64,000 bases of DNA from Okamejei kenojei (lineage: Eukaryota), in the NCBI GenBank assembly GCA_035221665.1, contig CM069137.1, positions 81,158,001 through 81,222,000 of the forward strand, written 5' to 3'. This document shows positions 1-57,273 of this stretch, one piece after another. Position 1 is the stretch's first letter; the number at the start of each line of letters is the position of its first letter. The translations under genes and the position numbers were made by a program. The notes beneath the pieces are model-generated. The model saw only the letters and a list, made by a program, of their open reading frames with translations. It had not been told where the DNA came from and ran no database searches.

Positions 1-388
1 TTATAACACTGACCAAGATGGATCCATTACCACAGGTTCTTGAAGTAACCAGAAGAAGGTGGCAGCTTATCCCGGAGCTACAGACCGAGCTGAAACAGAT
101 GAAACAAATGTGCTCACCAATGCCCAGTCTCAAAATGACCCTCCCTTCAATCACACAGCAGCTGAAGGAGAGCAATCAGGTTGTGGAGTTGAAAAACCTT
201 GATTTTGGAGTTCAGCTCAGTTACAGAACTGGATTGAGGTAAATCCCAGCCGGGATCAAAGTGAGGAGCTGAGTTGGGATGGATCAGACAGACAGTTGGC
301 ATTGATGGAGAAAGGAAGAATAATGCTGGTTTCACACGCAGATGGACAACTTGGGAGAAAGAACTACTCCATTTGTGAAAAGAAACTA
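1..388 (+). mobile_element. Possible degenerate retroviral/LTR pol remnant (RT connection/RNase H-like)
   Basis: Broken frames give WQLIPELQTELKQMKQ..P.L (resembles W-x-E-x-Q-AF-x-LK-x-L-x-P-x-L) and RIMLVSHADGQLGRKNYSICEKKL (resembles RPVAYASR..EKNYS.CEKELL). Weak; context with the downstream PPT/LTR supports it. Confidence 0.35.
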
Positions 389-725
389 TATTTGTGATGA
401 ATGTGGACAGACTTTCAAACAGCGGAAACACCTGTCAGTTCACTAAATGCGCCTTACTGGAGCAAAACCTTTGCAGTGTGAAGTTTGTGGTTTCCAGTGC
501 AGGCAAAGACCATCCTTGAAGTACTATATGACCAAGCACAAGGCAGAAGCTGAACTTGAATTTGCTTGTGACCAATGTGAGAAGCGGCTCGAGAAGGCTC
601 ACAATTTAAATGTGCATATGTCCATGGTTCATCCCTTGACCCAGAATACAGATAAAAATAAACCCATTGAAATTGAATCAAGTCTGCTAAGTATAGAAAC
701 ATTAATTAAACAGGAACCCAGCTAA
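382..725 (+). pseudogene. ZNF276: ZNF276 processed pseudogene, C-terminal piece (last three C2H2 fingers to stop; probable 3'UTR to ~984)
   Basis: NYICDECGQTFKQRKHLSVH*MRLTGAKPLQCEVCGFQCRQRPSLKYYMTKHKAEAELEFACDQCEKRLEKAHNLNVHMSMVHPL matches the ZNF276 C-terminus. No introns; premature TAA at 444-446; zinc-ligand His residues mutated. Confidence 0.9.
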
Positions 726-984
726 TAGTTATTGAACAGCAAAATGAGGAGTCTAAAGAATCTTGCACCCTTTTTCAGTGTGAGCAAGACACAAAGGATT
801 AACATGAATAAACGCAATCTTGTGCTGGTTGGGCAGTGTTTAATTTCAAAAGATTATAAACATCTGGTTTTATGTTTATTATTGTCAGATGTACTGAGGT
901 ACTTTGAAAAGCTTTGCTTTGCATGCTGTCCTATAAAATCAGATAATACTGTTCATCAATGCAATCACGCCAGGCTCACCTAGA

Positions 985-1143
985 GCAAAGGAAAGATTAG
1001 TGTGGAGAATATAGTTCTGAGCATTATAGCACACCAGTTCCAGAGACTAAGTCCAATGTCTGCAATGGGGTAGAGGTGAATCAGGCAGAATCCTAGCAAA
1101 TGGAAGGACTGTTCAGGACTCTGATAACAGAGGGGAAGAAGCT
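985..1143 (-). repeat. Antisense LINE 3'-tail fragment between the two ZNF276 pieces
   Basis: ...ctgataacagaggggaagaagct resembles the antisense LINE tails elsewhere in the window (e.g. ~14890-14930 tgataacagctgagaataaact). Confidence 0.55.
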
Positions 1144-2878
1144 AGTTGGTGTTGTGGTGAGGCAGGATTCCACTTTGCCACAGTATATCTGTAAGAACTG
1201 TCACGCTCAGTTTTGCAAGTGTTGGACTGTCTTGAACAAATTCATTCAAAAAGTGAATACTTCACCAGTAGCTTCAGTGCAACATGGACAACAGGCTAGC
1301 AGATGTGTTGCAGCAACTGAAACATCATCAGTGCAATCACTTTGTGTGGTATGTCAGCTGCACGGAGGCGGAGAGGAGAGCTCTTCAGCGCGTCGTCCAC
1401 AGAGTGCAACAGATTATTGGGACACCGCTACCAGACTTGGAGGGCATCTACCACACACGGTGCCTCAGGAAGGACGTCAGCATACATAACGACTCCTCTC
1501 ACCCTTGTAGTGGATTGTTCGAACTACTCCCTTCCGGCAGATGTTACAAGGCCTTCCATGCCAGCACCTCCATACTCAGGAACAGCTTCATTCCCAGAGC
1601 TATAGCGGCTCTGAACCGGCCCTGCTGAGTACCCCCCCCCCCCACCCCCATGGACTGTCTCCCCTGGCCTCGCACTTTAGTCTGTGTTGATTTTACTGGT
1701 CTAATGTTCGTTTTTACAAACCTTGTTCTCGGGGTATCTAAACCTAAATTTTATTTGTCAATGAAATTGTGACATCGGATGGAAGTTGCAAACCAAATCT
1801 CATTGCACTTTTGTTTAATGACAATAAAATATTATTATTATTATTACTTTCACAATCTCCATTAAGACTATTCTGTGTCTGGTGACTTCAAGCAGATGTT
1901 AAACGATGGTGTCTTGGTTGCAAGCCCACAGGTTCTACAGATTTTGGTCACCTGGGCTCACCATCATGGTAGTAGCTGTGATTCTCAGCCACATGTACAG
2001 AGTGTTTTAACAGCAGAGTATCGAGGAGGAGTCGGCACTGTGTGGGGGTGTCCAGAGGGCCACAGTTACATCCTGGACATGCATTCAAGTCGCAGCGTTG
2101 TTTTAAATGAGGGACAGTGCCCATCCAGTAGAAATAAGGACTCAATGGAGGAAGTTCTAGATGGTTCAAAAACCCTTTCATCTCGGAATGGAACAATGAC
2201 TGAAAATGGTGAGTGTGATAATATTGTGAAGCATCAACCAGTCCCAGTGTTAGCAGACTTTCAGCCTTGTAGGAGCCACGTGGAGCCATTTCATGGTCGG
2301 TGGATGTGGACAACTCGGAATCACCATTGAAGAAGGATATGTTCTTGCGCTCAGATCCTGAATATACAGAGTGCCCTTGGGAAAAAGTTCAGGTACAAGA
2401 TGCAACTCAACCATTAAATGTGAAAAAAACAGTTAACTGCAATGAAGCATCTTGTTCTATAAGAAATGATGTTGTGAATGGATAGGAGTCCAGTGATCTT
2501 TCTGAAAGGTATTTATCAAGTGAAGATGAAAGGGAAATAAAAGTTAAGAATGGCTCTTCAGATGAGTCTTTTCAACCATATTGGAAGAAGATGAGTAAGT
2601 TACCAGTTAAGAAGTGCAATATTAAGGATGTGAAGAAACAATCTGGACAAAAACATGGCCGGAAACCAAAGTCAAACTTGGAAAGGCAAGATTTCCCCAC
2701 CATGTATCGATGTCAGTATAAGTGTTTACAGAGAAATTGACGGACTTAAGAAACACATAAAAGAGCAGCATGAAGAGGTGTGTGGAAGACCTTGCCCCCA
2801 CGCAGGATGTAACAAGGTGTTTCTGATTGATCGCTACCTGCAGCGCCATGTAAAGCTGATCCATACAGAAGAACGAAC
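1136..2878 (+). pseudogene. ZNF276: ZNF276 processed pseudogene, N-terminal/central piece (zf-AD C-half through second C2H2 finger), interrupted by a LINE at 1344-1842
   Basis: KKLVGVVVRQDSTLPQYICKNCHAQF (ZAD); SPQVLQILVTWAHHHGSSC..EYRGGVGTVWGCPEGHSYILD; YREIDGLKKHIKEQHEEVCGRPCPHAGCNKVFLIDRYLQRHVKLIHTEER. Frameshifts and stops; no introns. Confidence 0.9.
1344..1842 (+). mobile_element. 5'-truncated Rex1/Babar-like LINE inserted into the ZNF276 retrocopy
   Basis: WYVSCTEAERRALQRVV..HPCSGLFELLPSGRCY..LRNSFIPRAI ORF2 end, AATAAA and (TAT)n tail; candidate TSD atcacttt (1336-1343) / attacttt (1843-1850). Confidence 0.8.
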
Positions 2879-3045
2879 ATCTTTACAGATCAGCAGGAAG
2901 TGCAAAGCCTTTGGTCACAACTTCGGAAAGACAAACCACATTTGATCAACAATCTTGAAGCATTTTGAGCTCTATCGTATGACCAAGGGTCTAGAGAGAG
3001 AGAAGCTGAACATTTTGAAACTGATGGACCTCTTGAAAGAGATTA
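2876..3045 (+). pseudogene. Two fused cDNA fragments of a CRACR2A/CRACR2B (EFCAB4/Rab46)-family gene
   Basis: NIFTDQQEVQSLWSQLRKDKPHLINNLEAF resembles CRACR2A [48 protein letters not shown] resembles [25 protein letters not shown]. The intervening coiled coil is missing. Paralog not determinable. Confidence 0.7.
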
Positions 3046-3785
3046 TGCATAACCCTATCCAGGAAGACAATGACTCAGACCTGGTGGGTAATCAGTGTGA
3101 TGACAATCAGGACATTGTGGGGATGGCAATTATGGTGTTTCTGATGAGAAGGACAATTGCCGTTTTGTTCCCAACCCTGACTAGATCGATGCCGATGGTG
3201 ACAGCAGAGGAGACATCTGCAAGGACGACTTTGACAACAACATCCCAGATATCTATGACATGTGCCCCGAGAACAGCGCCAGCAGTGAGACTGACCTGAC
3301 GAAGTTCCAAAGGGGATGATGCAGATCGTTGCTAACTGGGTAATGCGCAACAAGGGCAGGGAGTTACTGCAGACTGCCAACTCTGACCCTGGCCTTGCTG
3401 TCAGATTTGAGGAGTTCGACGCCATCAACTTCAGTGGCACCTTCTACGTCAACACAGACCACAATCTACGCTGGCTTTGTCTTTGGCTTCCAGTCCAGCA
3501 GCCACTTCTACGTGGTGATGTGGAGCAGGCCACACAAGCCTACTGGGAGGAGAAGCTGTCCAAACCCATGGATACACCAGCGTCTCACTCAAGGTGGTGA
3601 TCCCCACCACAGGCCGAGAGGGGGGGAACACCTGTGCAACGCTCTCTGAAGAGACTGGGAACACCCTCGGACAGGTGCAAACTTTATGGCACAACCCCAA
3701 TATCGGCTGAAAGGATTACACCGCCTACAGTTGGCACCTGACCCATCGACCCTAAACAAGCATCATCAGGATGGTTGTCAATGAA
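3046..3785 (+). pseudogene. THBS2: Thrombospondin subgroup A (THBS2-like) processed fragment: type-3 repeats plus C-terminal lectin-like domain
   Basis: HNPIQEDNDSDLVGNQCDDNQDI; [25 protein letters not shown]; NWVMRNKGRELLQTANSDPGLAV.FEEF..INFSGTFYVNT; YAGFVFGFQSSSHFYVVMW; GEHLCNAL; TGNT.GQVQTLWH; KDYTAYSWHLTHRP. Intronless, frameshifted, with internal deletions. Confidence 0.85.
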
Positions 3786-3793
3786 GAGAGTGA

Positions 3794-3963
3794 GAACTGG
3801 ATGTGATACCATTGGTTTGATGGACTTTGGGGTACTATTGAACTGGTTGCCATACCTTTGGTTTGGTGGACTTTGGGGTACTGTGATACATTATTGCTCT
3901 AACATTCTGCTAATCATTGTTCTAATAGTTGTGACCATTGTGTGTACCTACCGAGGACTGTGA
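3794..3963 (+). mobile_element. Env transmembrane-like tail remnant
   Basis: NWLPYLWFGGLWGTVIHYCSNILLIIVLIVVTIVC: Trp-rich membrane-proximal segment plus hydrophobic anchor, directly upstream of a PPT; contains a ~46-bp tandem duplication. Confidence 0.5.
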
Positions 3964-3980
3964 ATATTAACATGTTTGAT

Positions 3981-5202
3981 AAAAAAGAGGGAATGAAAGA
4001 GATAATAGTCAAATCTAATAAGGTTTTCAAAATGGAGCCATTCTACAAAAGCATGGTCTAGTAGAACAAAAGAATGGCGGTGTCAAGTCTGAATGTCTTT
4101 GCAAATTATAGGGAACACAATATGGAGGACAGGTTGTCTTTTTAATAAAGACATTAAAATGGAAACGTGCATAATAACATGTGCTTCTTTCAAAGCCATA
4201 AAGAAGCCAAGATTGAAAGAAATAGCTGATGCTAGAGAGATGTAATAACTTGTTATTGGATGATTTTGATTTGGACCCAGCTTTTCCTATATTCTGAAAG
4301 TCTATAGAATCTTTCAGTCATGCCATGGTCAGACTTTGTAGGAGAGTTTTACGGATAAGAAAAATGTATAAATGCGCTAACTTTCCTTTGTTCTGTGAGT
4401 GGAGCCCGAGAAGCACGAGCAACGTTTGTTTTGTAAGAGATGAACTTTGATAAGGGACTGAGCCTCCCGTTGTACCCTCTCTCTCCCATCTTCCGGCAGG
4501 TTACCCAGTGAGCTGGTGTCCGTGATGGACACACAATGGTTGCAGTAGCGGGGAGTGAACGTGGCGTGAGTAGCGGGCCCGTCACTGGTGCACCGCGTGT
4601 GGGGGCAAGGGCTCTGTGGTTCCTTAGCCTGTGAACTCCCACTTGTTTACCAACCCTCCCCCCCCCCCCTCCCTCCCTACGATGCCTCCGTGTTTCTTCC
4701 CTCAAGAGTCAAGAGGGTTTTATTGTCATATGTCCCAGATAGAACAATGAAATTCTTACTCGCAGCAGCAGAATAGAATATGTAAACATAGTACACTGTA
4801 AACAATATAATAAACGAGAGAGAAAAAAAAGCTCAGTGTGTATATACACATACTCACAAATATATATCATCCCACACATTGATCTATATATTGTATGTAT
4901 ACACATACGCACTCACAAATAAAACAATAATAGTGCAATAATAACAATAGTAGTCTATGTAATTCAGAACTTATTTGAGGGGTTGTAGTGTTTAGTAGCC
5001 GAATGGCTATAGGGAAGGAGCTATTCCTGAGCCTGACTTCCTAGCCTTGGATTAAACTTTACCCCTGAAGCGGTTCACGTCTTGTATAAACACAGTTTAA
5101 TATTTAAATGATACAGCTCAACAATTAGTACAAAAGGGCAAGGTGTGTTAACGTGTTGACTGTGAAATGAAGCCTAGCTCCGTCGTCTGCTGCACCCCGT
5201 CA
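3981..5202 (+). mobile_element. Polypurine tract (3981-3993) and putative 3' LTR of an ERV starting TGAAAGA at 3994
   Basis: AAAAAAGAGGGAA|TGAAAGA closely resembles the gammaretroviral PPT/U3 junction; TATAAA at ~4367; ATTAAA at 5051. The 3' end is uncertain: TCTTTCA ending 4316, or ..CCCGTCA ending 5202. Confidence 0.6.
4703..5035 (-). repeat. Antisense LINE 3' tail inserted in the putative LTR
   Basis: caagagtcaagagggttttattgtcatatg.. tail pattern shared with other LINE ends in the window. Confidence 0.6.
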
Positions 5203-5933
5203 GCTGTTTACCCAGATTGGCGTTGATTGGTTGGCCCAGATCATGCCAGGTCCCCGTGAGAGCTCGACGAACGATGGTTCGAGGCCAAAGTGGCTCGGCC
5301 ACATGATGGCGCCACATGACCCTCCCCCCCCCCCCCAACCCCCATCACTCGGATATGGCAGACAATTGGCAAAGACAGACACCATCGGCCCCTCCCACTG
5401 CCCCTCCCATGATCCATTATCGCAAGGGTTTACTCTATCTACAAGAGGAGTAACTGGCACCACATAACCGACTCATCAATGTGAGGGATGATGTTCAGGC
5501 CTGAGAAATACAGGCACAGCACTGTAACTACTAACGTGAAAGGTGCTTCAAGAAGGATGGAAACTAAAATTAAAACAAATAAGAAAATAGTTTTTTAGAG
5601 TATTTTACATTATTACTAGAACAGAGATCTGTATTATTATGCAAATATTTACATTATTTGTGTTTATGGTCCCATATCACTCGCTAATGCACATATTCAG
5701 AAAGGAAAACAAACATTATATCACTTGGCAGCACATGGTTTGCAGCCTGCAAATAAACAAGACATAAGTCACAGTTTTGCTTTCCAAAGCGTAATTAAGA
5801 AACAACTCTAGGAACAATGAGAAATGGAGCTTTGGTATGTGTATAAACTGGGTATAATTTCAATTGGTTGCTAGTTGGTACTGGGTAATGTAAACAGGAG
5901 TTCATTTATTTAACAAAGAACATAGAACAGTAC

Positions 5934-12518: not shown

Positions 12519-13435
12519 TAGATTAGATAGATTAGATTCCTTTATTGTCATTCAGACCTTTCGGTCCGAACGAAATTCTTGTTACCTTGCAGTTATAACA
12601 TACAACAAAAAATTAAAAAACACATAATAAACACATATTTAACATCCACCACAGTGAGTTCACCAGGCACCTCTTCACTGTGGTGGAAGGCAAAAGTCTT
12701 AAAGTCTTTGTCTTCTTCCCTCCCTGTTCTCCCCCTGCGCTGAGGCGATCCAGGCCCCCGATGTTATCGCCCACTAGGCCCGCGGCCGAGCCTCCGAAGC
12801 CGGGCTGCCGCCACCGCCGTCGCCGGAATGCTGGAACACCGCCACAGCTCCGAATCAGGGTCCACTGCTGGAACGCTGGAGCACCGCAGCTCTGAAGCCG
12901 GACCGCCACTGGAGCACCACTGGAACGCCGTTGGAGCAACCGCTGGAGCACCGCAGCTCTGAAGCCGGACCGCCGCTGGAGCACCACTGGAACGCCGCTG
13001 GGGCAACCGCTGGAGCACTGGAGCTCTGAAGCCAGGCCGCCGCTGGAACGCCGCTAGAACGCCACTGGAGCGCCGCTGGAGCACCGCTGGAACGCCACTA
13101 GAGCACCGCAGCTCCGAAGCCGGGTCACCGCCGCCGCTGGAACGCTATAGCTCTGAATGCTGAACGCTCGCCACAGCTCCGAGGCAGCCAGCTCCGCCAT
13201 TAGGCTTCCGCCATTAGGCCTCAGCACAGACGGAGACGGTGACGTGGGATACGACAAGAAAAGGTCACATCCCTCTGAAGGGAGAGACCAAAACCCTGTT
13301 TCTCCCACCCTCCCCCCCCCACACACACAAACGCAACCTAACAAACCAAAACAGACACAAGAAGACAAAAAAAAGAAAAAACAGACGGACTGCAGGCATG
13401 CCGCAGCTGCCACGCAGCGCCGCCACTTCCCGAAT
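12519..13435 (-). mobile_element. Non-autonomous LINE-derived retroposon with internal GC-rich VNTR
   Basis: Minus-strand start ggaagtggcggcgct, LINE-like 3' end with (TCTAA)-type tail, and gccgctggagcaccgcagctctgaagccgg / ccgctggaacg repeats at ~12825-13160. Confidence 0.6.
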
Positions 13436-55649: not shown

Positions 55650-57273
55650 CAGTGGCTTGCAAAAGTATTCATACCCCTTGAACTTTTCCACATTTTGTCA
55701 CGTTACAACCACAAACGTAAATGTATTTTATTGGGATTTTATGCGATAGACCTACACAAAGTGGTGCATAATTGTGAAGTGGAAGGAAAATGATACATGC
55801 TTTTCAAATTGTTTTACAAATAAAAAACTGAAAAGTGTGGCGTGCAAAAGTATTCAGCCCCCTTTACTCTGATACACCTAAATAAAACCCAGTGCAACCA
55901 ATTGCCTTCAGAAGTCACCTAATTAGTAAATAGAGTCCACTTGTGTGTAATCTAATCTCAGTATAAATACAGCTGTTCTGTGAAGGCCTCAGAGGTATGT
56001 TAGAGAACATTAGTGAACAAACAATGTTCCTTGGGCATCATGAAGCCCAAGGAACACACCAGACAGGTCAGGGATAAAGTTGTGGAGAAGTTTGAAGCAG
56101 GGTGAGGTTATAAAAAAAATCCCAAGCTTTGAACATCTCACGGAGCACTGTTCAATCCATCATCCGAAAATGGAAAGAGTATGGCACAACTGCAAACCTA
56201 CCAAGACATGGCGGTCCACCTAAACTGACAGGCCGGGCAAGGAGAGCATTGATCAGAGAAGCAGCCAAGAGGCCCATGGTAACTCTGGAGGAGCTGCAAA
56301 GATCCACAGCTCAGGTGGGAGAATCTGTCCACAGGACAACTATTAGTCGTGCACTCCACAAATCGGGCCTTTATGGAAGAGTGGCAAAAAGAAAGCCATT
56401 GTTGAAACAAAGCCATAAGAAGTCCCGTTTGCAGTTTGCCACAAGCCATGTGGGGGACACAGGAAACATGTGGAGGAAGGTGCTCTGGTCTGATGAGACC
56501 AAAATTGAAGTTTTTGGCCTAAATGCAGAACGCTATGTATGGCAGAAAACTAACAATGCACATCACCCTGAACACACCATCCCCACTTTGAAACATGGTG
56601 GTGGCAGCATCATGCTGTGGGGATGCTTTTCTTCAGCAGGGACAGGGAAGCTGGTCAGAGTTGATGGGAAGATGGATGGAGCCAAATACAGGGCATCTTG
56701 GAAGAAAACCTGTTAGAGTCTGCAAAAGACTTGAGACTGGAGCGGAGGTTCACCTTCCAGCAGGACAACGACCCTAGACATACAGCCAGAGTTAAAATGG
56801 AATGGTTTAGATCAAAGCATATTCATGTGTTAGAATGGCCTAGTCAAAGTCCAGACCTAAATTCAATTGAGAATCTCTGGCAAACTTGAAAATTGCTGTT
56901 CACAGACGCTCTCCATCCAATCTGACTGAGCTTGAGCTATTTTACAAAGAAGAATGGGCAAAAATTTCAGTTTCTAGATGTGCAAAGCTGGTAGAGACAT
57001 ACCCCAACAGATTTGCAGCTGTAATTGCAGCGAAAGGTAGTTCTACAAAGTATTGACTCAGGAGGGCTGAATACTTTTGCACGCCACACTTTTCAGTTTT
57101 TTATTTGTAATACAATTTGGAAACCATGTATCATTTTCCTTCCACTTCACGATTATGCACCGCTTTGTGTTGGTCGATGACATAAAATCCCAATAAAAAA
57201 CATTTACGTTTGTGGTTGTAACGTGACAAATGTGGAAAAGTTCAAGGGGTATGAATACTTTTGCAAGCCACTG
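55650..57273 (+). mobile_element. Tc1/mariner DD34E transposon, Passport-like, full length (1624 bp)
   Basis: TA TSDs; ~210-bp TIRs starting CAGTGGCTTGCAAAAGTATTCATACCCC with an internal direct repeat (gcaaaagtattcagcccc). Confidence 0.97.
56040..57056 (+). pseudogene. Tc1 transposase, disrupted (TGA at ~56103 and frameshifts)
   Basis: MKPKEHTRQVRDKVVEKFEAG*GYKK; WSDETK; QQDNDPRH; [15 protein letters not shown]; ends STKY*. Confidence 0.93.

Follow-up and report, generated by a model that had tools for sequence, protein, structure and literature searches.

The first 4,452 nucleotides (nt) of a 64,000-nt stretch of the genome of the skate Okamejei kenojei (assembly GCA_035221665.1, contig CM069137.1, positions 81,158,001 to 81,222,000; hereafter the window) belong to a 6.7-kilobase (kb) long terminal repeat (LTR) element, of which the window holds the 3' two-thirds. 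The element carries pieces of four host genes, THBS2, CRACR2A (also known as EFCAB4B), BICD2 and ZNF276, nested in the order virus > THBS2 > CRACR2A > (BICD2, ZNF276). The element belongs to a non-coding, multi-copy family, and its four nested host-mRNA pieces were very probably caught serially by template switching of reverse transcriptase (RT) during replication. A preliminary description of the first 5,202 nt, made from the letters alone, had proposed an endogenous retrovirus (ERV) carrying a mosaic of host complementary DNA (cDNA) acquired in this way; that overall reading is supported, and the checks it proposed came out as predicted. Features of the element are listed in Table 1, and negative coordinates count upstream of window base 1.

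All cargo pieces lie on the sense strand and are intronless, and their parent genes were all located, with introns, on contigs C17 (ZNF276), C8 (THBS2), C19 (CRACR2A) and C16 (BICD2). Relative to the parents, nine introns have been lost from ZNF276, four clear ones from THBS2 (with a short fifth joint, all within 3044-3785), two from CRACR2A and one, of 14.6 kb, from BICD2. The predicted intron loss thus holds for all four genes, one more than had been recognized: ZNF276, CRACR2A and THBS2 had been named correctly as intronless sense pieces, and BICD2 at about 45-195 had been missed. The pieces had been described as lying back to back. However, the two THBS2 parts come from one exon, as do the CRACR2A parts flanking ZNF276, and the structure is therefore nested; its permutation and serial history, described below, had also been overlooked. 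About 30 nt of the THBS2 exon are missing where CRACR2A sits, the BICD2 piece has an internal deletion of about 75 nt, and the CRACR2A piece at 2870-3043 contains two exon joints and one internal deletion at about 2966. There is no poly(A): runs of seven or more A residues are absent from positions 1 to 4000 except for one 7-mer at 2423. The element therefore shows intronless partial mRNA between element sequences without poly(A), as in LTR-mediated retrocopies, and not the single-gene, poly(A)-tailed structure of an L1-type processed pseudogene.

Table 1. Features of the LTR element and its cargo in the window, ordered by position
Feature	Position	Strand	Remarks
THBS2 left piece	1..21 (from -27)	+	95% identical to parent exon C8:31347992-31347950; follows pol-like remnant and env-signal-peptide-like stretch
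CRACR2A (EFCAB4B) late-exon piece	20..44	+	Parent exon near C19:28489815; cut by BICD2 insertion
BICD2	45..195	+	Two consecutive exons joined; Pfam BicD; parent C16:58482251-58482347 joined to 58496972
16-nt joint sequence	197..212	+	No convincing match on either strand of 6 copies
CRACR2A	213..364	+	Late exon 213-244, then early exon 237-364; parent C19:28489783-752, then 28501143-016
Left copy of 9-nt repeat flanking ZNF276	356..364	+	Single in both ZNF276-less copies
Filler	365..378	-	Derived from the element's own LTR (positions ~24-55), short and inverted
ZNF276 left part	379..1143	+	Second-last exon from nt 4, last exon, long 3' untranslated region (UTR) into old repeat
ZNF276 head-to-tail joint	1137..1143	+	7-nt microhomology AGAAGCT, mid-exon
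ZNF276 right part	1137..2877	+	Mid zf-AD exon, seven more exons, 9 nt of the left piece's starting exon
Later repeat insertion	1344..1843		(ATT)n end; without counterpart in sibling copies spanning the site
CRACR2A resumed	2870..3043	+	From right copy of 9-nt repeat; parent C19:28498947-865 and 28492965-896; phmmer match to EFCAB4B
THBS2 resumed	3044..3785	+	Same parent exon as left piece; TSP3 repeats and C-terminal domain
Env-tail-like stub	3786..3980	+	Trp-rich, then hydrophobic; resemblance only
Polypurine tract	3981..3993	+	Purine tract precedes 36 of 36 located 3'-LTR starts
3' LTR	3994..4452	+	TG...TA; ~90 nt shorter than sibling LTRs; matches 5' LTR
4-bp target-site duplication AGGG	4453..4456	+	Same letters directly 5' of the 5' LTR

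The THBS2 and CRACR2A parents were located by family and protein searches. DNA searches for these two gave only copies of the family itself (4 of 4 and 3 of 3 fetched candidates, respectively), and a word-based protein search with 2834-2965 gave no match, where phmmer found EFCAB4B. The parent of the left ZNF276 part lies at C17:55215577-479 and 55211077-55210416. The parent exons of ZNF276 and BICD2 are 97-98% identical to skate proteins. Several other candidates were rejected: a thrombospondin gene on C9 is only 68-77% identical to the THBS2 piece, a CRACR2 paralogue on C18 gave no match, a BICD gene on C19 was discarded as the BICD2 parent, and a weak Pfam match to HECW_N at 206-394 had no match in PDB and is CRACR2A at the DNA level. 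As a side observation, the TSP_C exon of a second thrombospondin gene (C9:60518797-60519157) is split over two frames, through either a sequencing error or a true frameshift.

The ZNF276 piece is circularly permuted. Its first nucleotide is nt 4 of the second-last exon; the last exon and the 3' UTR follow, after which the sequence switches to the middle of the zf-AD exon and continues through seven more exons to nt 9 of its starting exon. The piece thus completes a lap of about 2 kb, with 6 nt between entry and exit. The joint lies within an exon, and no donor/acceptor pair in the parent gene reproduces it. Six of the seven letters of AGAAGCT are matched today by the parent's 3' UTR, and all seven are present in two of four unrelated copies of the repeat into which that UTR extends. 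CRACR2A is also non-colinear: an early exon follows the late one, the two being joined, again mid-exon, at an 8-nt identity, AGGTAAAT. Roughly 86 codons that would link its end to its start are absent, and a full lap is seen for ZNF276 only.

Copies that lack ZNF276 indicate that the captures were probably serial. Short copies were pointed to by the spacing between domain matches, and in two of the 16 loci fetched (L114 and L115) CRACR2A is continuous through an empty ZNF276 site. Because an exact loss between the two 9-nt repeats could mimic an empty site, we scored diagnostic positions, namely the columns outside CpG sites at which family and host gene have different letters. The host letter is kept at 16 of 45 such columns in L114 (Fisher 6e-10) and 12 of 42 in L115 (1e-6), compared with 101 of 2035 in 54 other copies, none of which keeps more than 7 (52 of these have ZNF276 sequence and two are of undecided ZNF276 status). 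L114 and L115 are therefore lineages of an older state and not deletions. The layers also differ in their distance from the parents. The family differs at 56 of 749 columns in THBS2 (7.5%) and 21 of 302 in CRACR2A (7.0%), compared with 29 of 1163 in ZNF276 (2.5%) and 3 of 118 in BICD2 (2.5%), a contrast of outer with inner layers significant at p=5e-8. Non-synonymous fractions are 0.065 for THBS2, 0.076 for CRACR2A, 0 of 563 for ZNF276 and 0.013 for BICD2, in a count that left out about 450 columns from two exons of ZNF276 as well as the second, short exon of BICD2. It is well supported that ZNF276 was captured last; the presumed order of the first three captures is read from the nesting of the sequences.

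The filler at the joint between CRACR2A and ZNF276 connects the last capture with the element's own replication. In 18 of 35 copies, the 25-mer across the joint has an exact match of at least 12 nt to natural LTRs, and the nine longest matches (16-18 nt) are all on the inverted strand near LTR positions 24-55. In a shuffled null, 12 nt was reached in 3.5% of trials (maximum 15 in 1750), and other 25-mers of the cargo reached it in 1 of 152. When each copy is compared with its own LTR, the best match falls at the same LTR position in 10 of 15 copies. RT would thus have left ZNF276 at the entry point for the LTR DNA of the element and not for the homologous return site, which suggests that the template physically ended there, on the same molecule, and that the capture was tied to the element's reverse-transcription complex. 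In the ZNF276-less copy L115 (C23, ~28663500), a deletion is filled by a longer inverted piece composed of LTR start, polypurine-tract end and the complement of the primer-binding site (PBS). This piece starts at the same motif as the ZNF276 filler, which is possibly a hot spot for jumping of RT onto its own cDNA.

The mosaic has been amplified as a unit. Among 40 scored candidates for the internal region, 39 other loci matched, with main blocks 86-94% identical, and at least 79 other loci fetched (39 + 4 + 3 + 16 + 17) carry all or part of it. First-look searches gave 852 candidates for the LTR and 120, 140 and 229 for internal pieces; although these figures should not be read as copy numbers, they suggest about 100-200 copies with cargo. 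Nine junctions recur in 34, 34, 38, 37, 31, 17, 42, 44 and 39 of 55 other loci, and many of the misses are due to deletions or to loci fetched in part. The suggestions of an amplifying family and of a repeated LTR (40 of the 852 candidates were scored) are thus borne out. Contigs of three other organisms span the BICD2-CRACR2A junction (X7, X14) and the CRACR2A-ZNF276 junction (X6, X7), which means that the mosaic did not arise in assembly and that this genome is not alone in having it. Shared internal deletions (819-955, 1134-2053 and 1184-2059) define subfamilies among L034-L072. The window copy is of a rarer long type, with 19 matches to 1185-1343, two of which are parent exons, and is without about 1 kb of leader seen in most other copies.

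The element has the boundaries of an integrated provirus. As had been predicted, it extends upstream of the window, where a matching 5' LTR at -2244 to -1576 begins 2.2 kb away, directly preceded by AGGG, and PBS and target-site duplication (TSD) were found with it. The two LTRs are 8.2% diverged, within the range of 5.3-10.3% of the seven copies with LTR pairs, and the total length of 6.7 kb includes the 500-nt insertion at 1344-1843 and one of about 100 nt within the 5' LTR. Paired LTRs with TG...CA ends are found in the family, most siblings ending in CA where the window's 3' LTR ends in TA. Among the 40 copies examined, seven have both outer ends; six of them have an exact 4-bp TSD and the seventh one mismatch, the sequence being different in each. 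Isolated LTRs have a matching 4-bp TSD in 2 of 5 cases. A PBS-like sequence follows 15 of 15 located 5'-LTR ends, and its best-kept versions match the 3' end of the genome's tRNA-Ser(AGA) genes (11 pattern matches, of which two were checked and both are tRNA-Ser). The preliminary description had placed the polypurine tract and the LTR start exactly where they lie. It had extended the element to 5202, but the element ends at 4452, and 4457-5202 is flank. One sibling, L052 (C21:32432901-32442900), has an LTR at oriented positions 4824-5365 with matching 4-bp flanks, followed by truncated cargo and a second LTR; the flank letters recur after both LTRs, and the locus looks rearranged or recombined.

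Few viral remnants are left. Weak pol-like sequence had been noted at 1-378, which is cargo; the pol-like remnant lies upstream of the window, within about -514 to -110. It aligns at 50-65% (tblastx, E 5e-12) with loci that have murine leukaemia virus (MLV)-type integrase and is 72% identical by blastn to pol loci bearing MLVIN_C. The env-like stub seen before the LTR does resemble an env tail, and it matches neither Pfam nor other ERV loci. Likewise, the stretch before the left THBS2 piece resembles an env signal peptide and has no homology match. RT is absent from the scanned copies; the only RVT_1 match, in L063, sits in an insertion not common to the window's element. Gag and pol coding capacity is absent and the integrations are dispersed, as in a non-autonomous element. 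An autonomous partner with the same LTR was found at none of 23 env-tail or 6 integrase loci, with only the top candidates scored. The features resembling class I (gamma- and epsilon-like) ERVs are the 4-bp TSD, the TG...CA LTRs, a tRNA PBS two bases after the LTR and a putative remnant of an MLV-type integrase tail; unlike those ERVs, the element has no coding capacity and no RT left for the defining phylogeny. Very probably its lineage is a class I-type ERV, dependent on a helper and built up by serial RT template switching. Two observations concern other ERVs of this genome. A family with an MLV-type pol end (L110-L113, e.g., C19:35014805-35017954) has, in the env position, a frame with an immunoglobulin (Ig) V-set domain (E 1e-8) and no Pfam env match in the one locus scanned, which may be an unusual env or a second capture of a host domain. 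In addition, the integrase C-terminal match of a different ERV lies 30 kb upstream of the window (C7:81128296).

The following history would account for these structures. THBS2 mRNA would have taken the place of the middle of an env-like region, CRACR2A would then have entered THBS2, and BICD2 would have entered CRACR2A. Shortly before the main burst of copies, RT would have left the element at an 8-nt match to ZNF276 mRNA, copied toward the 5' end of that mRNA, jumped through the 7-nt microhomology into its 3' UTR and copied back to the entry point, where the template may have been cut by RNase H or blocked; it would then have briefly touched the element's own LTR DNA before rejoining the element. 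Each stage would have been mobilized in trans by a helper ERV, none of which was found. The switch points show microsimilarity of 7-8 nt at three joints, weak or unassigned elsewhere, as read by eye without a chance model. We are evenly divided on a further proposal, that this vertebrate ERV lineage is a self-propagating accumulator of cDNA in which each new mRNA enters the previous cargo and at least one was copied head to tail from a single linear mRNA in one full lap, through an extra strand transfer on host RNA.

Several results weigh against serial template switching as the history of the element. The pol remnant by itself gave no Pfam match (0 of 34 frames, and 0 relevant of 60 frames), neither a helper nor a member with intact env was found, and THBS2 lies upstream at all 23 env-tail loci. 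Some joints have only 1-4 nt of microhomology, and no origin was found for the 16-nt joint at 197-212. The own-LTR test of the filler is noisy, only 1 of 15 copies beating all 40 shuffles. Synonymous fractions fail to order the layers (0.117, 0.052, 0.059 and 0.098), BICD2 looks young although it is older than ZNF276, and the divergence clock does not separate THBS2 from CRACR2A, which may itself be fast-evolving. No THBS2-only or BICD2-less stage was found among the loci inspected. A further point is the 9-nt direct repeat around ZNF276 (356-364 and 2870-2878, with one mismatch in the window copy), which resembles the TSD of a long interspersed nuclear element (LINE). The preliminary description had reported neither poly(A) nor TSDs between the pieces and had held that pieces with their own TSD would speak against capture by the element; the absence of poly(A) stands, and the repeat is in part such a TSD. 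It does not overturn the reading because it coincides with microhomology to ZNF276 mRNA and lies beside filler derived from the LTR.

The same repeat is the starting point for the view that the pieces are LINE-driven retrocopies, made by internally primed target-primed reverse transcription (TPRT) and inserted into proviral DNA that went on replicating. A purine-rich, priming-like site and extra bases at the 5' joint of ZNF276 also resemble TPRT products. However, the extra bases are inverted LTR, poly(A) is lacking, CRACR2A has no flanking duplication and replaced part of THBS2, and it would be improbable for one lineage to receive three sense insertions in succession within about 400 nt in a genome of 2.76 gigabases; we consider this origin quite unlikely. 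Somewhat less improbable, though still doubtful, is a variant in which the element's history is the same but RT went once round a covalently closed circular RNA (circRNA) of ZNF276 (and of CRACR2A). A circular template would yield such a lap, closing where it began; moreover, a pyrimidine-rich AG precedes the ZNF276 landing site, the CRACR2A take-off resembles a donor, and the mouse has LTR-flanked, non-colinear circRFWD2 pseudogenes (PMC4897178). On the other hand, both joints are mid-exon with no back-splice pair, the parent ZNF276 has no fitting donor, AGAAGCT offers a microhomology that the parent and its repeat relatives largely retain, and RT makes exon-shuffled joints in vitro (PMC2923612). 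A head-to-tail jump on linear mRNA is therefore favoured over a circular template.

Selection on the cargo, through a fusion product (for example, a THBS2 domain with an env anchor) that aided the element or the host, is very unlikely. In several copies the reading frame continues from the right end of THBS2 into the env-like tail, which chance alone would give one time in three, and cargo-bearing forms make up all 23 env-tail loci inspected. Against this, the left joint of the window copy breaks the frame, the later captures interrupt THBS2, the outer layers have non-synonymous fractions of 0.065-0.076 and stop codons abound in the copies. The cargo seems to be carried along neutrally. An assembly chimera or a segmental duplication is refuted, to a near certainty, by TSDs and flanks that differ from locus to locus, by copies that are 86-94% identical to one another and by the contigs of other organisms that bridge the junctions.

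Multi-gene LTR retrocopies are already known, namely maize Bs1 and mouse 'Super', and by most features examined the skate element is a real LTR-mediated retrocopy. Bs1, a plant element, reportedly makes a hybrid protein; among the acutely transforming retroviruses, those with two cellular genes are defective and helper-dependent. Our element, in contrast to Bs1, comes from an ERV-like vertebrate lineage and gives no indication that a frame has been kept; it differs from both the two-gene transforming retroviruses and the HERV-K/FAM8A1 capture, which involve one or two genes, in its nested serial record. Bs1, as cited in Tan et al. 2016 (PMC5131818), is likewise an LTR element with transduced pieces of several host genes; in the FAM8A1 capture, cited there too, internal viral sequence was likewise replaced by host mRNA and the defective genome needs a helper. 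The same text sets out a template-switch model with two-gene chimeras and possible further cycles of retroposition, and lists the MERVL 'Super' retrocopy, with four parent genes, at one locus. LTR-mediated retrocopies such as 'Super' share with our element the partial, intronless and tail-less mRNA pieces within an LTR element, the microsimilarity at switches and up to four parents; in contrast to that single locus, the four-gene unit, here a nested one, is present at 80 or more loci, with surviving earlier stages. Dong et al. 2016 (PMC4897178) describe 33-42 LTR-flanked, non-colinear RFWD2 copies and allow that RT acting on open RNAs with close ends could mimic circRNA-derived copies; Houseley and Tollervey (PMC2923612) produced such joints with RT in vitro. 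The circRFWD2 pseudogenes and our family have in common dozens of LTR-flanked, tail-less copies with non-colinear exon order, whereas the joints of the former are back-splice sites of one gene and those of the latter are mid-exon microhomologies, 3' UTR included, in a four-gene nest. A literature search, outside which most subscription papers and repeat libraries lay, found no account of this family, nor of nesting, preserved intermediates and amplification together.

Two repeats elsewhere in the window may be mentioned. Positions 55694-55869 and 57055-57230 form a 176-nt inverted repeat pair, 92% complementary and 1185 nt apart, that is possibly a small DNA transposon, and 12874-13129 is a GC-rich tandem array with periods of 67 and 11 nt.

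Most of what is known about the capture of host genes by retroviruses comes from single end products. Here the germ line keeps intermediate stages, and the order, joints and timing of the captures are directly readable, which tests the step of the template-switch model termed further cycles of retroposition. The full-lap permutation is relevant to the question of whether circular RNA is required for non-colinear pseudogenes. If ZNF276 was copied from a linear mRNA, it is a circular-looking pseudogene made without a circRNA, and some LTR-flanked 'circRNA-derived pseudogenes' could be products of RT in vivo. If the proposed history is true, this family preserves retroviral transduction as a fossil record that is both dated and staged. 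For skates, 100-200 copies would confuse the annotation and expression estimates of THBS2, CRACR2A, BICD2 and ZNF276, and the insertion sites could serve as phylogenetic markers.

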